From IMG/VR virus record IMGVR_UViG_3300045988_046105, positions 1 to 29,037 of that record: DNA of 29,037 nt; one strand, written 5' to 3'. The notes below the pieces were generated by a model, which had not been told where the DNA came from, did no database searches, and was given only the letters and a program-made list of their open reading frames with translations. Origin of the DNA: a virus (lineage: Duplodnaviria > Heunggongvirae > Uroviricota > Caudoviricetes). Below, piece by piece: positions 1,045 to 26,325 of this stretch. The translations under genes were made by a program, and so were the position numbers. Each line of letters opens with the position of its first letter. Position 1 is the first letter of the stretch.

Positions 1045-1641
1045 ATGATGCCTGCTGAACCTAAAACCTATAAACGCAAATCAACGCAATTTAAGCCACT
1101 AACAGCAATGCAGGAGGCTTATTGCCAGTCATACATCAAAACGCCTGAAAACCAGACTCAGGCAGCGATTAATGCAGGATTCTCCCCAAATACAGCGGCA
1201 GTTAAAGCCAGTGTCATGATGCGCGATGAACGCATTCAAAAACGGATTGCCGAGTTGATGGAGGAGCGCAACAAACGAATGCGCGTCAGTGCTGATTACG
1301 TTCTCATGCGCCTGGTGGAGATCGACCAGATGGACGTGATCGACATCCTCAACGACGATGGGAGCCTTAAGCCAATCCGCGAGTGGCCGAAAATCTGGCG
1401 CACTACGCTTAGCGGCTTTGATCTGTCATCGACCATCATGAACATGAACGAGGATTCGATAGAGACAATCCTCAAAAAAATTAAATGGCCTGACAAGGTG
1501 AAGAACCTCGAACTGATTGGTAAGCACGTCGACGTCAACGCATTCAAAGAACGCCTGGATGTTAATGTGAATGTGACAATTGCTGATCGCATAGCAGCAG
1601 CCAGGAAGCGACTCAAAGAACGTCAGGATGGTAATCAGTGA
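1045..1641 (+). CDS. terminase small subunit
   Basis: ORF 967..1641 (TTG start); a more plausible start is the ATG-ATG pair at 1045. Sequence ...AAINAGFSPNTAAVKASVMMRDERIQKRIAEL... is typical of phage small terminase families (recollection). Stop overlaps the large-subunit start. Confidence 0.7.
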   Translation: MMPAEPKTYKRKSTQFKPLTAMQEAYCQSYIKTPENQTQAAINAGFSPNTAAVKASVMMRDERIQKRIAELMEERNKRMRVSADYVLMRLVEIDQMDVIDILNDDGSLKPIREWPKIWRTTLSGFDLSSTIMNMNEDSIETILKKIKWPDKVKNLELIGKHVDVNAFKERLDVNVNVTIADRIAAARKRLKERQDGNQ

Positions 1642-3113
1642 CAGATACAGTGTTATCTCCTGAAGAGCAGTTGATCGAGGATATTGCAGGGTTCACTCAC
1701 GATCCGCTTGGCTATGCCCTCTATGCGTTCCCGTGGGGGGAAGAGGGGACTGAACTGGCACATGCTACCGGTCCACGTCAGTGGCAGGCCGATGCGTTCC
1801 GAGAGATACGTGATCACCTGCAGAATCCAGAGACGCGTTATCAGCCGCTTATGCTGGCACGTGCTTCTGGTCACGGTATTGGTAAATCCGCATTCATCTC
1901 AATGCTCATCAACTGGGGCATGTCCACTTGCGAGGATTGTAAGGTCGTGGTGACCGCCAACACCGACAACCAGCTACGAACGAAGACCTGGCCGGAAATT
2001 ATCAAGTGGTCGAACCTTGCTATCACGAAAGACTGGTTTACCTGTACCGCTACCGCGATGTACAGCAATGACCCTGGGCACGACAAGCGGTGGCGGGCTG
2101 ATGCAATACCCTGGTCTGAGCACAACACTGAGGCATTCGCCGGACTACACAACGAGCGCAAACGCATCATCGTGGTATTCGATGAAGCGTCGAACATTGC
2201 GGATCTGGTGTGGGAAGTTGCTGAGGGTGCGCTTACGGACGAAGACACTGAGATTATCTGGGTGGCGTTCGGAAACCCTACACGTAATACCGGGCGTTTT
2301 CGCGAATGTTTCCGCAAATACAAACACCGCTGGAAAACTGCGCAGATTGACAGCCGGACGGTGGAAGGTACTAACAAACAGCAGTTGCAGAAATGGGTTG
2401 ATGACTACGGGGAAGACAGCGACTTCGTTAAAATCCGTGTGCGCGGCATATTCCCTGATGCATCTGAATTGCAGTTTATCCCTACCGGTCTTACTGATGA
2501 GGCCATGAAACGGGTGGTAACCGCTGCGCAGGTTGCACATGCTCCGGTGATAATCGGCGTTGACCCGGCATACTCCGGAGTTGATGACGCTGTGATATAC
2601 CTGCGGCAGGGGCTACACAGTAAGGTGCTGTGGACTGGCAACAAGACTACCGACGATCTGATTATGGCGAAGCGTATCGCTGACTTTGAAGACCAGTATC
2701 AGGCTGACGCGGTGTTCATCGACTTCGGTTACGGAACCGGTTTGAAGTCAATCGGTGACGGCTGGGGGCGTACATGGCAACTTGTTCCGTTCGGTGGCGC
2801 GTCTACTGACCCGCAGATGCTCAACAAGCGTGGGGAGATGTTCAATTCATGCAAGACATGGCTGAGGCTTGGCGGCATGCTGGATGACCAGGAAACAGCA
2901 GACGACCTGTCGGCGGCAGAGTACAAAGTTCGAGTGGACGGTAAAATCGTTATCGAACCGAAGGAAGATATCAAGGAGCGGCTTGGGCGTTCGCCTGGTA
3001 AAGGCGATGCGCTACTGCTGACGTTTGCTTTCCCGGTGTCAAAGCGCCTGCGAATTCCCGGGCAGCAGAACCAGCAAGGCAAGGCCATTACAGATTACGA
3101 TCCCTATGCTTAA
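1638..3113 (+). CDS. terminase large subunit
   Basis: 491 aa; Walker A-like GHGIGKS, acidic ...VVFDEAS..., position and size. GTG start overlapping the upstream stop (GTGA). Confidence 0.9.
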   Translation: MTDTVLSPEEQLIEDIAGFTHDPLGYALYAFPWGEEGTELAHATGPRQWQADAFREIRDHLQNPETRYQPLMLARASGHGIGKSAFISMLINWGMSTCEDCKVVVTANTDNQLRTKTWPEIIKWSNLAITKDWFTCTATAMYSNDPGHDKRWRADAIPWSEHNTEAFAGLHNERKRIIVVFDEASNIADLVWEVAEGALTDEDTEIIWVAFGNPTRNTGRFRECFRKYKHRWKTAQIDSRTVEGTNKQQLQKWVDDYGEDSDFVKIRVRGIFPDASELQFIPTGLTDEAMKRVVTAAQVAHAPVIIGVDPAYSGVDDAVIYLRQGLHSKVLWTGNKTTDDLIMAKRIADFEDQYQADAVFIDFGYGTGLKSIGDGWGRTWQLVPFGGASTDPQMLNKRGEMFNSCKTWLRLGGMLDDQETADDLSAAEYKVRVDGKIVIEPKEDIKERLGRSPGKGDALLLTFAFPVSKRLRIPGQQNQQGKAITDYDPYA

Positions 3114-3159
3114 TCCGTTAGCGGGGATAATGACGGAGATATCCTCTGGTGAGGATAAA

Positions 3160-3190
3160 ACAAAGCCAGCTCATCGGCTGGCTGTTTGTG
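3160..3190. terminator. bidirectional intrinsic terminator between convergent terminase and accessory gene
   Basis: Hairpin AGCCAGC-TCATCG-GCTGGCT (3164-3183), A-tract upstream and GTTTGT downstream on + strand. Confidence 0.5.
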
Positions 3191-3199
3191 ACATGTCAC
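3188..3199. repeat. exact palindrome GTGACATGTCAC, copy 2 (14-mer TGTGACATGTCACG)
   Basis: Read directly; 4 bp downstream of the stop of minus-strand gene 3204..3575. Confidence 0.9.
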
Positions 3200-3203
3200 G
3201 GTG

Positions 3204-3575
3204 TTATTGCTCGCTTAACTTCTGCTTCAGCAAGTAACCTTCAAGCATCCAGATTTTGTTTACAGCATTCTGCCGGGCAATCTTCCGACCAATTCCCGCA
3301 TCAAAGTTTTCCGGGCTTGCACAGGCGCTCTCTCCGGTGACGGTGAAGCCGTTGCGCAGCACCAGAACGCAGAACGTCAGCAGAGAAAGTGATTCGTGCG
3401 GCTGGTAGTTTACCTCTCCGCCAGTATGTTTCGCTTTTATGGCTACGCCAAAGACACCATCTTCTGCTGTGAAATATGCCTCCTGAGCAATAATGCTCTC
3501 GATATGGTCTGGCGTAACGCGCGGCGCGGCTAAACCTTTAGCCTGAATTTCAGATTCAATGTCTTTGTCACTCAT
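3204..3575 (-). CDS. conserved small phage protein of unknown function (123 aa); family not confidently identified
   Basis: Strong SD AAGGTGAG 8 nt before ATG; motif ...LLTFCVLVLRNGFTVTGESACASPENFDAGIGRKIARQNAVNKIWMLEGY... recalled from many enterobacterial prophage proteins. Opposite strand to all flanking virion genes. Confidence 0.65.
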   Translation of the reverse strand: MSDKDIESEIQAKGLAAPRVTPDHIESIIAQEAYFTAEDGVFGVAIKAKHTGGEVNYQPHESLSLLTFCVLVLRNGFTVTGESACASPENFDAGIGRKIARQNAVNKIWMLEGYLLKQKLSEQ

Positions 3576-3591
3576 AGTCTAATCTCACCTT

Positions 3592-3615
3592 AAAAAAATG
3601 CCCGGCGAACCGGGC
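3592..3615 (-). terminator. terminator-like hairpin plus U7 immediately upstream of the RBS of 3204..3575
   Basis: Minus strand: GCCCGG-UUCG-CCGGGC followed by AUUUUUUUAAGGUGAG; the SD begins right after the U-tract. Confidence 0.4.
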
Positions 3616-3691
3616 GAACTGGAAGCAATGAGTTATGCCTTCCGTGGCTGTACTGGTTTACAGCATGAAGTCATCGCAATGGCGTCCTGCT

Positions 3692-3735
3692 GTAAAAAGG
3701 GCGGTGATAGTCCTTCAAGGGAAACCATCACCGCC
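3692..3735 (-). terminator. hairpin downstream of tRNA-Arg (possible tRNA terminator)
   Basis: 9-bp inverted repeat GGCGGTGAT/ATCACCGCC with 18-nt loop, followed on minus strand by CUUUUUA. Confidence 0.3.
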
Positions 3736-3778
3736 AAGCACCTGGAACTTCTGGCATCACGGTCCTTAGGCGTGATTC

Positions 3779-3855
3779 TGGCGTGGCATGCAGGATTCGA
3801 ACCTGCGACCAACCGCTTAGAAGGCGGTTGCTCTGTCCAACTGAGCTAATGCCAC
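3779..3855 (-). tRNA. tRNA-Arg (anticodon UCU), 77 nt, CCA encoded
   Basis: Hand-folded reverse complement GTGGCATTAGCTCAGTTGGACAGAGCAACCGCCTTCTAAGCGGTTGGTCGCAGGTTCGAATCCTGCATGCCACGCCA: 7-bp acceptor, 4-bp D stem, 5-bp anticodon stem, loop CUUCUAA, 5-bp T stem with TTCGAAT loop. Confidence 0.9.
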
Positions 3856-4176
3856 AACGCTGAGAGCACTTAGCCTGTTAAGGCGCCACACTTTGTCGCG
3901 GCTCCATAAATGCTCTCATCGTTGTACCCTCGTCTCTTCCGAGGCGTCACACCGAATCGCCGGGATGGTGAATCCCCGTGCGCGGAATAAAACCGCTCGA
4001 CTTGCACATTCCGGCTACCTGGTTCGTTTGCCCGAGCAAGGGAGGGTGCCCCTTAAACGTATCCAGACCGCTATCGTCGCATGTGCCATACGCCGTACTG
4101 CTCAAAATAAAAGCTCACTCCACCTGTTCAATTTAACGACAAGCCAGTCAGGTTAATAACCGGAATGAACTATTTA

Positions 4177-4193
4177 CTTACCTGAAGGGTAAT
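4177..4193. promoter_or_regulatory. operator-like palindrome CTTACC-TGAAG-GGTAAT (site S6) upstream of the portal operon
   Basis: Read directly; sits in the ~420-bp non-coding region 3856-4282 about 90 bp upstream of the first structural-operon ATG. Confidence 0.4.
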
Positions 4194-4282
4194 AATTCGT
4201 GCATTAAATGTCAACTATCTACGATAAATAAATCATATGTGGTTAAATTGGTAATAATTTAATTGCGTACGGAGTCATTGAT

Positions 4283-4489
4283 ATGTGCATGGGTAGCTCA
4301 CCATCAGTGCCTGCAACACCAGAAGTTCAGGCAGCACCACAGGAGCAGGATGCCGCCGTTGTTGATGCCCGCGACGAAGAAACACGTCGCCGTCGCGCTG
4401 CTGCTGGTCGTAGTTCTACGCTGCTTACCGGTTCTCAGGGCGACACATCAACCGCTAATACCAGCGGTAAAACGCTGCTTGGTCAGTAA
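4283..4489 (+). CDS. small hypothetical protein (68 aa)
   Basis: ATG with GGAG SD; RBS context GGAGTCATTGA-ATG is duplicated almost exactly at the portal start (4491-4506). No recognisable domain. Confidence 0.45.
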   Translation: MCMGSSPSVPATPEVQAAPQEQDAAVVDARDEETRRRRAAAGRSSTLLTGSQGDTSTANTSGKTLLGQ

Positions 4490-4503
4490 CCGGAGTCATT
4501 GAA

Positions 4504-6183
4504 ATGGCGGAAACAACTAAAGAGCGATTGAACAAACAGTTCGCACAACTTGAAAGCGAGCGTCAGTCGTTCGAGCCGCACTGGCGCGAGTTGAGTGATT
4601 ACATCAACCCGCGTGGTTCCCGCTTTCTGACTTCTGAGGTCAACCGTAACGATCGACGCAATACACGCATTATTGATTCGACCGGGACTATGGCGGCGCG
4701 CACTCTCGCCAGCGGCATGATGTCAGGCATCACAAGCCCCGCCCGTCCGTGGTTTCGCCTGGCTACGCCAGATCCTGAAATGATGGATTATGGCCCTGTT
4801 AAGTTGTGGCTTGAGGCGGTGCAGAACCGCATGAACGATATGTTCAATAAGTCGAATCTCTACCAGTCTCTTCCGCAGTTATACGGAAGCCTCGGCACAT
4901 ACAGCACTGGTGCAATGGCGGTGCTGGAGGATGACGAGGACATCATTCGCACAATGCCATTCCCTATAGGCAGTTACTACCTGGCTAACTCACCTCGTGG
5001 CAGTGTGGACACCTGTTTCCGCAAGTTCTCTATGACTGTTCGTCAGCTTGTTCAGGAGTTCGGGCTAAATAACGTCAGCGAATCCGTAAAAAGCATGTGG
5101 GAAAGCGGCACCTACGAGAAGTGGATTGAAGTGATGCATTCGGTTTACCCGAACATTGACCGCGATACATCGAAGCTGGATAGCAAGAACAAGCCATTCA
5201 AATCGGTTTATTACGAGGTTGGTGGCGATAACGACAAGTTGTTGCGTGAGTCCGGATTCGATGAGTTTCCAATTATGGCTCCGCGCTGGGAAGTTAACGG
5301 CGAAGATGTTTATGGATCATCATGCCCGGGTATGCTGGCGCTTGGACCTGTTAAGGCATTGCAGCTTCTCCAGAAGCGCAAGTCGCAGTTGATTGATAAA
5401 GCCACCAATCCGCCGATGGTTGCTCCGACTTCCCTCAAGAATCAGCGCGCCTCCCTTCTTCCTGGCGACATCACGTATATCGATCAGATTACTGGTCAGG
5501 ATGGCTTCAGGCCTGCTTATCTGGTTAACCCCAGTACAGCAGATTTGGTGGCAGACATTCAGGACACCCGTCAAATCATTAACAGCGCCTACTTTGTCGA
5601 TCTGTTCATGATGTTGCAGAACATCAATACCCGCTCGATGCCTGTTGAAGCGGTAATCGAAATGAAAGAAGAAAAACTTCTGATGTTGGGGCCGGTTCTG
5701 GAGCGTCTGAACGACGAATGTCTTAATCCTCTCATTGACCGCGCTTTCTCGATGATGGTGCGTAAAAACATGCTGCCGCCACCGCCTGACGCGATGGAAG
5801 GCATGCCCCTGAAGGTCGAATACATTTCCGTCATGGCTCAGGCGCAGAAGTCTATCGGCCTGTCCAGTCTGGCGTCCACGGTTAACTTCATTGGTCAACT
5901 TGCGCAAGCGAAACCAGAAGCTCTCGACAAACTCAACGTTGATCAGGCGATCGATGCATTCGCTGATATGTCCGGAGTGTCTCCAACCGTCATTGTTCCG
6001 CAGGAACAGGTTGAGCAGGCTCGCCAGCAACGGGCACAGCAGCAACAGCAGCAACAAATGATGGCGATGGGGATGGCGGCGGCACAGGGTGTCAAGACGC
6101 TAAGTGAAGCTAAAACTTCGGATCCGAGTGTGTTGTCAGCTATGGCGAATGCAGTTAGTGGTCAGGGTGGGCAATCACAATGA
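4504..6183 (+). CDS. portal (head-to-tail connector) protein, T7 gp8-like
   Basis: 559 aa; overall pattern and Q/M-rich C-terminus (QQQQQQQMMAMGMAAAQG) resemble T7 gp8 as recalled; position after terminase. Confidence 0.85.
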   Translation: MAETTKERLNKQFAQLESERQSFEPHWRELSDYINPRGSRFLTSEVNRNDRRNTRIIDSTGTMAARTLASGMMSGITSPARPWFRLATPDPEMMDYGPVKLWLEAVQNRMNDMFNKSNLYQSLPQLYGSLGTYSTGAMAVLEDDEDIIRTMPFPIGSYYLANSPRGSVDTCFRKFSMTVRQLVQEFGLNNVSESVKSMWESGTYEKWIEVMHSVYPNIDRDTSKLDSKNKPFKSVYYEVGGDNDKLLRESGFDEFPIMAPRWEVNGEDVYGSSCPGMLALGPVKALQLLQKRKSQLIDKATNPPMVAPTSLKNQRASLLPGDITYIDQITGQDGFRPAYLVNPSTADLVADIQDTRQIINSAYFVDLFMMLQNINTRSMPVEAVIEMKEEKLLMLGPVLERLNDECLNPLIDRAFSMMVRKNMLPPPPDAMEGMPLKVEYISVMAQAQKSIGLSSLASTVNFIGQLAQAKPEALDKLNVDQAIDAFADMSGVSPTVIVPQEQVEQARQQRAQQQQQQQMMAMGMAAAQGVKTLSEAKTSDPSVLSAMANAVSGQGGQSQ

Positions 6184-22596: not shown

Positions 22597-22745
22597 GGCG
22601 ATCACCTTTGTAGTTAGGTTAATCACCACCGCTGAGACCAATCAGATGGTGGTGAACTGTGCAGAGTTGGTCTTACCGGCTACAAAGGAACCCGGCGCAC
22701 CTTTCGGTGCCCCCACACAGCCCACCATAGAATAGGTGCGCTTTA

Positions 22746-22843
22746 CACATAAAAAAACCGCTTATGCGGCATATGTGCCTCTGTAGTAATCCGGGAGACC
22801 AATCCCGGCACTGGATTTTGCCAGTGCCCGATTACTATGGCAC
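22746..22843 (-). ncRNA. structured 5' leader / candidate small RNA upstream of Bro-N gene, ending in hairpin plus U7
   Basis: Nested helices: GTGCC(22775-79)/GGCAC(22839-43) and GTAATC/GATTAC enclose two stem-loops (CCGGGA-N6-TCCCGG; GGCACTGG-N6-CCAGTGCC); then CCGC-N4-GCGG plus U7 (22751-22769). The 69-aa ORF over this region has no ATG and spans promoter elements. Confidence 0.35.
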
Positions 22844-22862: not shown

Positions 22863-22879
22863 TTTACCGCAAAGGTAAT
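22863..22879. promoter_or_regulatory. operator-like palindrome TTTACC-GCAAA-GGTAAT (site S1) overlapping -10/+1 of predicted Bro-N promoter
   Basis: Read directly; minus-strand promoter TTGATT-N18/19-TATCAT predicted by eye. Confidence 0.45.
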
Positions 22880-22955: not shown

Positions 22956-22972
22956 ATTACCTTTAAGGTAAT
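22956..22972. promoter_or_regulatory. operator-like palindrome ATTACC-TTTAA-GGTAAT (site S2) just upstream of RBS of 22992..23720, plus half-site ATCACC-TGAAA at 22938-22948
   Basis: Read directly; perfect 6-5-6 dyad. Confidence 0.45.
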
Positions 22973-24075: not shown

Positions 24076-24092
24076 ATTACCTGAAAGGTAAT
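24076..24092. promoter_or_regulatory. operator-like palindrome ATTACC-TGAAA-GGTAAT (site S3); half-site TTTCAGGTAAT at 24132-24142
   Basis: Read directly; perfect 6-5-6 dyad between the small LexA-box gene and the tailspike gene. Confidence 0.45.
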
Positions 24093-24195: not shown

Positions 24196-26325
24196 ATGAC
24201 GGTCTCAACCGAAGTTGACCACAACGAATACACCGGTAACGGCGTTACGACATCGTTTCCGTATACTTTTCGAATTTTCAGAAAATCAGACCTGGTTGTT
24301 CAGGTGTCTGACCTGAACGGGAACGTAACAGAATTGGTCCTGGATACCGGTTATACGGTAACTGGGGCGGGCACTTATAGTGGCGGTTCTGTGGTTCTTC
24401 CGTCTCCGCTTGCTACTGGCTGGCGAATTACGATAGATCGTGTGCTTGATGTAGTGCAGGAGACAGACCTTCGCAATCAGGGAAAATTTTTCCCCGAAGT
24501 GCATGAAGATGCCTTTGACTACCTGACGATGCTGATCCAGCAATGTTTTGGGTGGTTCAGACGTGCATTGATGAAGCCCTCTCTGCTTGCAAAATATTAC
24601 GATGCAAAGCAAAACAGAATTTCTAACCTTGCAGATCCATCACTTGAGCAGGATGCTGTAAATAATCGCTCAATGCGTAATTATGTCGATGCTGCAATCG
24701 CCGGGGTTGTTGGTGGTTTTGGTTGGTTTATTCAGTATGGTTCTGGGGCTGTGTACCGAACGTTCCAGGATAAGATGAGAGACACCATTAGTGTTCGTGA
24801 TTTTGGTGCAAAAGGAGACGGCATAACAGATGATACTGTAGCAATTCAAAATGCTATTAATGCAGTACCAGAAGGGGCTATACTTGGATTTTATGGTGGT
24901 GAATTTGTTTTTGATAAGGTTGAATTGTTTAAGCCAATAACATTAGTTGGTGATGCAACGTTAATTCACAACGGATTTAGAATAAAATCTAGCAGAATCC
25001 GATCACTTTTATCTGGCGTTCAGAAATGCAAGGATTACTCCGAGTCTTCAAGAGCATTTTATTGCTATGCAAATGAAGACCAAAGAGATTATGACGATAT
25101 TCAGATTTTATTTAATAGATTTGAAGGTTTCTTTTACTCTACGGCATTTGTTGCAAAAAACTATTATTTGGAGAATGACCCTAATTCAAGAATTGTCAAA
25201 AACACAAAAGTAATAGGGTGTACATCAGTTGCTCCTGATTCTGTAAATGCCGGTCATTTTCAACATATAGGCGTTACAAATGCTGAAACATCACATAACT
25301 CAACTTATGGCGGACAAAATGCAACATCATACAACTTCATTAACCAGAATGGATTTGTAAGGATTATAGGAAATTATGACCATAACAATAGCTATGGTTC
25401 ATGTGAGCTTGAGAACTCAATGGTGAGTAACTCAGTCATATCAGGTAATACGTTTTCGTCATATTTATGGGTGGATGATACAAGTAATGTTACTATTTCT
25501 GGAAATACCGTTTCATCAAGGATCAAAGTAACATCGCAAACTGACGATGTTCATAATATAACCATATCAGCAAATACCACAAAACGGATTACTATAGAGC
25601 AATTTGGAGAATCGCCGACAGGTCTGGTATATGGTGCATTAATTTCCTGCAACACTATTACTGGCGACAGTGATGGAAGTTCAGACATTTTATGTGCGTC
25701 ACTTGTTACAGGTGAAATTTCATCAAATTATTGTCATGGATCAGAAAAAAATATATCAATTGTCCGCCTGGATTCTTCTGATATAACTGTTAGAAACAAT
25801 AAAGGAAACAAAGGATTACTTACAATAAGTAACGATGGTGGAAGGATAATTGAATATGGCAATGATTCTATGGTTCTGTCTGGAAGCATAGATAGCAGAC
25901 ATATACATAATTTATTACATCCAGACACATCGTATTTAGACCTACCGGGGAAATATCTGCACGGAACTAAATATACTGGCAGTATCCCCCCCGGTTCCAC
26001 AGGAACTGTATCACTTCAAATACCATCAGGGGCAAGCCTTGTTTTCAGGGGCGTTTCTATATGGGTTCTAATTAGAGATGTTAGCAATAACAATATATCG
26101 TCATTCAGAATTGATGGTTCATATAGAGTTGTTGGTGGAAGTGTTGGTCTTAGTTTTGCTGATGCTTATTCGAAACTCGGGGTGGATGCAAACTCTATAA
26201 CAGTGTCAAACAATAACAGCACTTCTGGCAATATCAGCATAGCAATTAAAAACACAGATTCATCAAAAACCCTTCAGGTTACTGTTATGCCGGAGGTTTC
26301 AAGCAGGTTAGGTATTGAGGAATAG
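24196..26325 (+). CDS. tailspike protein with beta-helix (pectate-lyase-like) receptor-binding/depolymerase domain
   Basis: 709 aa, SD TGGAGA; conserved-looking N-terminal module then DFGAKGDGITDDTVAIQNAI motif typical of right-handed beta-helix glycanases; C-terminal two-thirds AT-rich with Asn/Ser/Thr-rich repeats. Confidence 0.85.
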   Translation: MTVSTEVDHNEYTGNGVTTSFPYTFRIFRKSDLVVQVSDLNGNVTELVLDTGYTVTGAGTYSGGSVVLPSPLATGWRITIDRVLDVVQETDLRNQGKFFPEVHEDAFDYLTMLIQQCFGWFRRALMKPSLLAKYYDAKQNRISNLADPSLEQDAVNNRSMRNYVDAAIAGVVGGFGWFIQYGSGAVYRTFQDKMRDTISVRDFGAKGDGITDDTVAIQNAINAVPEGAILGFYGGEFVFDKVELFKPITLVGDATLIHNGFRIKSSRIRSLLSGVQKCKDYSESSRAFYCYANEDQRDYDDIQILFNRFEGFFYSTAFVAKNYYLENDPNSRIVKNTKVIGCTSVAPDSVNAGHFQHIGVTNAETSHNSTYGGQNATSYNFINQNGFVRIIGNYDHNNSYGSCELENSMVSNSVISGNTFSSYLWVDDTSNVTISGNTVSSRIKVTSQTDDVHNITISANTTKRITIEQFGESPTGLVYGALISCNTITGDSDGSSDILCASLVTGEISSNYCHGSEKNISIVRLDSSDITVRNNKGNKGLLTISNDGGRIIEYGNDSMVLSGSIDSRHIHNLLHPDTSYLDLPGKYLHGTKYTGSIPPGSTGTVSLQIPSGASLVFRGVSIWVLIRDVSNNNISSFRIDGSYRVVGGSVGLSFADAYSKLGVDANSITVSNNNSTSGNISIAIKNTDSSKTLQVTVMPEVSSRLGIEE

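Follow-up and report, generated by a model that had tools for sequence, protein, structure and literature searches.

Why should a temperate phage keep a lone tRNA gene on the strand opposite to its packaging and head genes? The question is raised by a stretch of 29,037 nucleotides (nt) of viral DNA (Caudoviricetes; positions 1 to 29,037 of IMG/VR record IMGVR_UViG_3300045988_046105), hereafter the window, in which a gene for tRNA-Arg(UCU) is flanked by terL (1638-3113) and the portal gene (4504-6183) and lies antisense to the adjoining packaging and head genes. Over most of its length the window shows 97% identity to phiV10-like genomes, and the 1.6 kb around the tRNA are 99.1% identical to Escherichia phage phiV10 and the O157 typing phages 9 and 10, and 97-99% identical to many E. 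coli prophages; judged by these resemblances, the window is a phiV10/epsilon15-like temperate podovirus of the genus Uetakevirus. The tRNA alone is ordinary, as temperate coliphages often carry tRNAs for rare codons. What is unusual is its context, a conserved RNA found at the start of repressor-controlled early transcripts. On balance it is probable that the gene specifies a working tRNA-Arg(UCU), carried as cargo on a repressor-controlled leftward transcript, that adds capacity for decoding AGA and AGG; within this account the start of transcription, the processing and charging of the tRNA and the benefit to fitness are what we infer.

The tRNA is the only one that ARAGORN predicts in the whole window, as tRNA-Arg with anticodon tct. 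The Rfam tRNA model (RF00005) matches 3782-3855 with full model coverage at 73.3 bits (gathering score 29; E = 1.8e-14), and no non-canonical pairs are flagged. Because the minus-strand sequence ends ...AUGCCAC-G-CCA (...ATGCCAC-G-CCA in the DNA), both the discriminator base G73 and the CCA are encoded. The E. coli K-12 gene argU (dnaY) shares the anticodon, length, encoded CCA and G73 of the phage gene, and alignment of the two gives 64 of 77 identical positions and 13 that differ. In the stems they fall on three pairs of the acceptor and two of the anticodon, every one compensated; outside the stems, one base of the D loop and two of the variable loop have changed. Both tRNAs share the T arm, the D stem and the anticodon loop CUUCUAA. 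The surroundings differ as well, in that argU has a simple sigma-70 promoter in front, whereas the phage gene is preceded by a structured RNA. Arginyl-tRNA synthetase (ArgRS) identifies its substrates by A20, C35, U36 and G or A at position 73; the phage tRNA keeps A20, C35, U36 and G73, and presents its UCU anticodon in a 7-nt loop.

Selection appears to have preserved these features. All 32 homologous copies in viral contigs retain the tRNA-Arg(tct) call together with the UCU loop, the identity positions and the CCA, and across phages of E. coli, Salmonella and Klebsiella the tRNA is 94-100% conserved while the flanking inserts diverge. Copies in Salmonella and Klebsiella phages vary at a few positions, with acceptor-stem pairing maintained via G-U pairs. 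Since every copy is a tRNA-Arg(tct) and the acceptor pairing tolerates G-U, purifying selection on a functional gene is indicated. An initial annotation, made without database searches, had described a canonically folded tRNA-Arg(UCU) at this position, with an encoded CCA and a sequence distinct from that of the host argU, and had suggested that tRNA prediction tools be run; ARAGORN accepts the fold, and Rfam, the encoded 3' end and the argU alignment agree with the rest of the description. That 3779-3855 is an intact elongator tRNA-Arg(UCU) gene may be regarded, from its sequence, as close to certain; its benefit to the phage is less so.

The gene itself was already known, and its earlier identification is correct. 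It is not new because the same tRNA-Arg is annotated in typing phages 9 and 10, phiv142-3, SPN9TCW, SPC32H/N, a Klebsiella phage and E. coli prophages annotated by PGAP in RefSeq, and 'one tRNA' was reported for vB_EcoP_ZX5 (PMC9782041). Other Uetakevirus genomes and prophages carry it at the same terL-portal site, 94-100% identical and with no substantive difference. The RefSeq record of phiV10 (NC_007804.2) carries no tRNA feature; at 2672-2923, equivalent to 3598-3849 of the window, it lists a hypothetical plus-strand open reading frame (ORF), PhiV10p04, which spans the tRNA and its 3' hairpins and is probably a mis-annotation. This ORF and a second plus-strand ORF at 3893-4156 were rejected as genes: neither has a Pfam match, they overlap the tRNA or covarying RNA, and homologues carry frame-breaking insertions or deletions.

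The conserved RNA lies 5' of the tRNA, where some 240 nt have counterparts of ~80% identity in unrelated temperate phages, in DNA that bears no annotation. Its structured domain, ~170 nt long, consists of a 5' hairpin (P1), a long-range helix (P2), an H-type pseudoknot, a hairpin P5 (CCUCG-GAAGAGA-CGAGG) and a core, GGUAGCCGGAAUGUGCAAG (4019-4001). The structure was derived by eye and scored on 39 non-redundant homologues, in which standard pairs fill 96.3% of cells, compared with 28-42% when the partners are slid. Both partners have changed in 14 of the pairs (106 cells), and none of 500 shuffles attains values as high. G-U pairs are frequent, which assigns the domain to the strand of the tRNA, and insertions and deletions among the homologues are not multiples of three. 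Folding of the leader as a single sequence is uninformative (z = -1.2), the structure being seen in the comparative analysis only. The homologues were gathered via the one exact 19-mer GGUAGCCGGAAUGUGCAAG, so invariance of the core is a condition of the sampling; a further pairing, of 4086-4081 with 3994-3989, is no more than a proposal. No Rfam 15 family matches the ~240 nt at E <= 1, nor the region 3580-4230 at E <= 10; the core was not found in a full-text literature search, and PGAP annotates nothing at the domain.

The domain is widespread. Its core matches at least 120 IMG/VR contigs and 24 stretches in species-representative genomes, the latter from genera of the Enterobacteriaceae and Erwiniaceae bar two metagenome-assembled genomes labelled Bacillota/Oscillospiraceae; two or three of the 24 look like chance hits in coding sequence. 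Relatives of the domain lie between trnI and ban in phages P1, P7, D6 and SJ46, just downstream of a CI-like repressor gene in mEp460, 2H10 and the Stx2a and Stx2c phages, and also occur in phages of Klebsiella, Enterobacter and Stenotrophomonas. In phage P1 (AF234172.1, 71023-71191) the domain fills the unannotated trnI-ban gap, within the C1-controlled ban operon. The contexts of 129 occurrences were surveyed (127 in viral contigs, the window and mEp460). In 32 Uetakevirus-like cases, where the portal gene diverges upstream, tRNA-Arg(UCU) starts 145-211 nt downstream of the core; in 17 others, P1-like and followed by ban, a tRNA-Ile2(CAU) ends ~95 nt upstream of it; and 80 have no tRNA within 700 nt. 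The tRNA-Ile2(CAU), the only other tRNA beside the domain, reads AUA, the other very rare codon of E. coli, and without exception the 50 tRNAs that lie 700 nt or less from the domain in viral contigs share its orientation. Loci that lack a tRNA typically have a gene for a CI-like repressor of 218-239 amino acids (aa) on the same strand, 120-150 nt upstream of the domain. In them the domain precedes the early-left genes, the N gene is not present, and the position is that of nutL or putL. The comparison thus points to a conserved, covarying and apparently unannotated RNA that is common to three unrelated groups of temperate phages.

The tRNA had initially been placed inside the late region, with no mention of its strand. 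It is physically enclosed there, yet it lies on the opposite strand behind a putative promoter of its own and under a predicted operator; on this layout it is not part of the rightward packaging and head (late) operon that surrounds it, and probably belongs to a repressor-controlled, leftward and early unit that diverges from the gp3/portal operon (Table 1). The putative promoter has a perfect -35 hexamer, TTGACA (4214-4209), a 17-nt spacer and a -10-like TACCCT (4191-4186) that matches at 3 of 6 positions. Since the -10 is weak and a consensus scan of 3000-4600 found no sigma-70 site, the promoter and start are proposed from conservation and from overlap with an operator, the palindrome TTACC-N5-GGTAA, which overlaps the -10 region. 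This motif has eight matches in the window, with 0.46 expected. The GenBank record of epsilon15 annotates the same motif, as ATTACC-N5-GGTAAT, as repressor binding sites, three of which flank the repressor gene while one is at the place equivalent to 4178-4192, and both TTGACA and the operator are invariant among the window, epsilon15 and the phage Tyrion. Other copies are found next to the C4/isrK/antirepressor region and before the tailspike region. Together the sites point to several units that the repressor is predicted to control, one of them within or in front of the small terminase gene. As for the C4 antisense RNA and isrK, the pair lies just upstream of an ORF that corresponds to annotated antirepressor genes of relatives, an arrangement that looks like the immI-type RNA control of antirepressor expression in phage P1, and the pair also occurs in three lambdoid loci (L025, L031 and L042; L numbers denote individual loci).

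Table 1. Features of the leftward unit and related elements in the window
Feature	Position	Strand	Basis or remark
Putative leftward promoter and operator	4178..4214	-	Sequence reading, conservation, operator overlap
Variable 5' leader, operator to structured domain	4097..4177	-	Length and content vary; insertions in epsilon15, L046, L015
Structured RNA domain, ~170 nt	3928..4096	-	Comparative covariation
Hairpin CAAC-GAU-GAGAGCAUU...(variable insert)...AAGUGCUCUC-AGC-GUUG	3856..3924	-	Sequence reading
tRNA-Arg(UCU), 77 nt, CCA encoded	3779..3855	-	ARAGORN; Rfam tRNA; alignment to argU and phage homologues
Conserved hairpin AUCACG-CCUAAGGAC-CGUGAU	3756..3776	-	Begins 2 nt 3' of tRNA
Terminator-like hairpin t1 (14-bp stem; 3735-3700), then CUUUUUACA	3691..3735	-	Terminator scan
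Terminator-like hairpin t2 (GCCCGGUUCGCCGGGC + U7; hairpin 3615-3600)	3592..3615	-	Terminator scan
Accessory gene, N4 gp49/Sf6 gp66 family, 123 aa	3204..3575	-	Pfam PF13876, E = 1.5e-34
Bidirectional terminator between terL and leftward unit	3164..3183	.	Terminator scan (minus); phiV10 annotation (plus)
TTACC-N5-GGTAA sites	1013-1027, 4178-4192, 22864-22878, 22957-22971, 24077-24091		Motif search
C4 antisense RNA	22645-22732	-	78.6 bits
isrK	22751-22827	-	74.7 bits
ORF downstream of C4/isrK, 245 aa	21904-22641	-	Counterparts annotated antirepressor

Between domain and tRNA stands a hairpin whose 3' arm holds a boxA-like UGCUCUC (3868-3862) and abuts position 1 of the tRNA. Its general form is GAGAGCAYU...AGUGCUCUC followed by AGC-GUUGUGG, and the motif YGCUCUY plus GUUGUGG recurs here in 92 of 128 loci. 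In one locus (L091) the same position is taken by a true boxA of the rrn spacer, TTTGCTCTTTAACAATCTGGAT, identical to that of K-12 rrnH at 21 of 22 positions. Beyond the hairpin lies a slot which the tRNA-Arg(UCU) fills in the window and which, from direct sequence reading and Rfam matches, is filled differently elsewhere. Five otherwise near-identical Uetakevirus-like loci (L046, L070, L087, L106 and L126) have non-tRNA RNAs bracketed by GUUGUGG...CCACAACCA, tRNA-like molecules with an acceptor-like stem; the hairpin with loop CCUAAGGAC follows these payloads just as it follows the tRNA-Arg. Elsewhere the slot holds a divergent tRNA with a 64-nt insert (L100, 43.9 bits), a mimic of 16S rRNA positions 237-283 (L075 and L102; 31.5-36.7 bits, 26 of 29 positions identical to K-12 16S) or a full-length STnc100-like RNA (L119) that, at 45.8 bits, falls just short of the gathering score (47). 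In L064 it is the hairpin, and not the slot, that carries an insert, a hammerhead-like RNA of type I with a complete catalytic core at 28.7 bits (gathering score 34). The RNAs 3' of the domain in relatives (loci including L018 and L079) also include a hairpin with a tRNA-Lys-type loop, CUUUUAA, and a T-arm-like hairpin.

The distal part of the unit is similarly a mixture of constant and exchangeable parts. The terminator-like hairpin t1 is conserved in relatives and in the lambdoid versions, and t2 directly precedes the ribosome-binding site of the accessory gene, at a place where the epsilon15 record annotates a rho-independent terminator. The function label of the gp49 family in PHROGs is 'unknown'. 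In relatives the accessory position is occupied by a Tad2-like domain (PF11195; Thoeris anti-defence), as in a Klebsiella phage (L006, 1968-2489) and the viral contigs L096 and L107, or by unrelated small genes, which suggests that the position behind the tRNA unit is a hot spot for accessory or anti-defence genes.

Several known systems share some of these elements. P1 trnI (tRNA-Ile2 CAU) is likewise a rare-codon tRNA of a temperate phage beside the same RNA domain and on the same strand; there, however, the tRNA comes first, ahead of the domain, and the unit runs on into ban, whereas in the window the domain comes first. The Stx phage 933W carries the tRNA genes ileZ-argN-argO, and in Stx phages these lie downstream of Q in the late operon; common to them and the window is a temperate enterobacterial phage with tRNA for rare codons (AGA/AGG, AUA). 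Leaders and spacers of rrn operons and boxA-protected CRISPR arrays are long untranslated transcripts, as the RNA of the proposed unit would be, and an embedded tRNA, a hairpin, the boxA-like UGCUCU, the GU-rich GUUGUGG and terminator-like hairpins before the downstream genes are all rrn-like. The rrn-type boxA (GCUCUUUAACAA-like), however, is single-stranded and follows a hairpin, whereas UGCUCUC in the window is short, corresponding to the first 6-7 nt of boxA, and base-paired in a helix arm, and rrn leaders have no counterpart of the ~170-nt pseudoknotted domain. Similarly, put RNA of phage HK022 starts the PL and PR transcripts as a cis-acting RNA antiterminator, and the domain holds the putL position in N-less lambdoid phages; put differs in being about 70 nt long with two stem-loops (PMC9378689), whereas the domain has ~170 nt and a pseudoknot. 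Homology to put was considered and rejected, as the immunity region with PL and PR of HK022 contains no match to the core (<= 3 mismatches) and no shared motifs.

Two classes of prophage RNA invite comparison as well. STnc100 and PasD (RF02076) are prophage small RNAs described as base-pairing (bioRxiv 10.64898/2026.05.13.724894), and an STnc100-like RNA occupies the slot in some relatives, as noted for L119. Searching 3580-4230 of the window up to E <= 10 gave no STnc100 hit. The large structured RNAs GOLLD and ROOL are found in prophages near or around tRNA genes, mainly in Gram-positive hosts, and are much larger; they resemble the locus in being phage-borne structured non-coding RNAs that adjoin a tRNA, and no Rfam match to either was found in the window, permissive thresholds (E <= 10 on 3580-4230) included. 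A role of the domain in carrying RNA polymerase through the untranslated region and the terminator-like hairpins, in the manner of rrn or put, is favoured by analogy, because of the position of the domain, the boxA-like motif and the terminators downstream.

If the tRNA is there for decoding, its cognate codons should matter to the phage, and the initial annotation had pointed to AGA in the AT-rich accessory and tailspike genes and had proposed a count of AGA and AGG in phage and host genes. In curated genes of the window the two codons together (AGR) amount to about 11.3 per 1000 codons (AGA 7.9, AGG 3.5), against 1.9 in 42 annotated core genes of K-12 (AGA 1.2, AGG 0.7), an enrichment of some 6-fold over this host sample (odds ratio 6.0, p = 1e-20), and they make up 19% of all Arg codons in the window. 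Usage per 1000 codons rises from 3.1 in the packaging and head genes (AGA 1.6, AGG 1.6) through 10.0 in tail and internal-virion genes (AGA 7.6, AGG 2.3) and 18.4 in accessory, immunity and lysis genes (AGA 11.8, AGG 6.7) to 28.2 in the tailspike gene (AGA 21.2, AGG 7.1), so that all classes beyond the head genes use these codons at ~5 to 15x the level of host core genes. In the tailspike gene 20 of 32 Arg codons are AGA (15) or AGG (5), which bears out the initial remark on AGA in the tailspike. That gene (24196-26325) is also more AT-rich than the rest (GC content 0.36-0.42 against about 0.51), which together with its rare codons is consistent with recent horizontal acquisition of a receptor-binding module.

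The favoured account can now be stated step by step. The leftward unit would comprise, in order, the promoter and operator, the variable leader, the pseudoknotted domain, the boxA-like hairpin, the tRNA, three hairpins of which two are terminator-like, the accessory gene and the bidirectional terminator, and would be switched on when repression is lifted or upon infection. RNase P would release the 5' end of the tRNA, host enzymes would trim its 3' end to the encoded CCA, and the host ArgRS would charge it. The product would then add decoding of AGA and, by wobble, some AGG to that afforded by the scarce host argU tRNA, and so ease translation of the tail, internal-virion, tailspike and accessory genes.

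Several observations weigh against decoding as the reason for the presence of the tRNA. Capsid, portal and protease, the most abundant virion proteins, hardly use AGR. AUA is enriched to the same degree, at 10.6 per 1000 codons in all genes and 32 per 1000 in the tailspike, and ARAGORN, which reports only one tRNA, finds no matching tRNA-Ile in the window. When genes were called by a single method in all genomes compared, AGR per 1000 codons was 11.1 in the window and 10.4 in SPN1S, which bear the tRNA, and 11.9 in Tyrion and 8.7 in epsilon15, in which ARAGORN finds no tRNA; none of the differences between bearers and non-bearers among these four genomes is significant. Within the genus, codon demand does not predict which phages carry the tRNA. 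Because relatives without the tRNA have much the same bias and AUA is enriched too, the AGR bias would seem a general property of AT-rich mosaic genes. The proposal that the tRNA supports AGA-rich genes therefore stands in part: its cognate codons are enriched as claimed, and carriage does not follow demand among relatives. A translational benefit is plausible from the codon usage, and is not required by it.

Further evidence on this side comes from epsilon15, which amounts to a natural deletion. When its positions 2583-3036 (L137) are set against 3560-4290 of the window, the tRNA is missing along with the larger part of the RNA domain before it. The endpoints coincide with a pair of copies of TTCCCTTGATGCT, of which one lies in a loop of the domain and the other in that of the terminator-like hairpin t1. 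Epsilon15 is without the tRNA because a deletion between these copies removed it together with most of the domain, and it is a viable, well-studied phage despite the loss of both tRNA and RNA core. Its record annotates an 'RNaseIII' site in the remaining part of the locus. Finally, since non-tRNA RNAs fill the same slot in closely related loci, the slot may be selected for something other than decoding.

What that might be is addressed by the principal alternative, clearly less probable in our judgement though not negligible, that the tRNA serves mainly as a processing and payload module of a non-coding leader, with decoding secondary. The cloverleaf would recruit RNase P and 3' processing enzymes, thereby releasing the upstream RNA, uncoupling the accessory mRNA, or both. 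It accords well with the geometry of the locus, in which the tRNA starts exactly at the end of the conserved hairpin (GUUG|UGGCAU), the P1-like tRNA ends ~10 nt before the same domain, and 50 of 50 nearby tRNAs share the domain's strand. The GUUGUGG...CCACAACCA RNAs and the divergent tRNA with its 64-nt insert in related slots also fit, as does the hammerhead-like insert in the adjacent hairpin of L064, which would be another self-contained cutting device, albeit one that matches below the Rfam gathering score. A mere handle for processing, however, needs no conserved UCU loop, ArgRS identity positions or CCA, and every copy keeps them. This same constancy makes it quite improbable that a neutral tRNA of host or phage origin hitch-hikes here, brought by recombination into a prone slot and kept by linkage. 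The slot is indeed a hot spot for swaps and deletions, and relatives that lack the tRNA are viable with similar codon usage, but neutrality sits poorly with a canonical cloverleaf and anticodon in every copy and with conservation of 94-100% across phages of three host genera whose flanks diverge.

An improbable explanation, though slightly better placed than neutral linkage, is that the tRNA is an anti-defence supply, replacing host tRNA-Arg destroyed by tRNA-targeting nucleases such as colicin D-type enzymes or PrrC/PARIS/retron-type effectors. Precedents are documented: phage tRNAs neutralise tRNA-cleaving defences, as shown for PARIS and the tRNA-Lys of T5 (PMC11464382) and for retron effectors and phage tRNA-Tyr (PMC11555353), and a general hypothesis linking tRNA-cleaving defence, colicin D included, to phage tRNAs has been put forward (PMC10264068). 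The unit is also predicted to be early and repressor-controlled, its downstream gene is swappable for the Tad2-like gene, and one related slot has the hairpin with the tRNA-Lys-type loop. On the other hand, the anticodon loop is the same as that of host argU, so the loop-mutation signature proposed for nuclease-resistant phage tRNAs is absent and the idea lacks specific support, and the gp49-family neighbour has no known function. No defence system specific for tRNA-Arg(UCU) is known to us in these hosts, though no search aimed at one was made. Least probable is that the gene marks an attachment or integration site, be it an attP/attB remnant or a satellite target. Many integrases do use tRNA genes, and argU itself is the site of DLP12 in K-12. 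The gene is complete, however, lies between terL and portal with no integrase nearby and not at a prophage border, and is found at the same position in free phage genomes as well as in prophages; moreover, the attB of the close relative vB_EcoP_ZX5 is the 3' end of guaA (PMC9782041). Position and published attB thus contradict an attachment site, which was rejected, and uphold the initial view that the tRNA, with phage genes on both flanks, is cargo.

A decoding tRNA on a repressor-controlled transcript hence remains the preferred reading of this gene, and it carries a caveat that extends to claims of codon compensation generally, namely that high use of AGA and AGG is insufficient to explain the presence of the tRNA. 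A broader and more tentative proposal, for which the odds are somewhat against us, is that the tRNA is one interchangeable payload of an undescribed and widespread family of modular early leader RNAs in enterobacterial temperate phages, which would act as an RNA-based, rrn-like scaffold for antitermination and processing. Members would combine the pseudoknotted domain, the boxA-like hairpin, the slot, the terminator-like hairpins and a swappable accessory gene, and every member, whether in Uetakevirus, P1-like or N-less lambdoid phages, would belong to an early unit under repressor control. The scaffold would drive and release tRNAs, tRNA-like RNAs, the 16S-helix mimic and STnc100-like small RNAs, and license accessory or anti-defence genes. 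If the domain is such an antiterminator or processing scaffold, it would explain how lambdoid phages that lack N read through their early terminators, and how small RNAs and accessory genes are deployed right after derepression.

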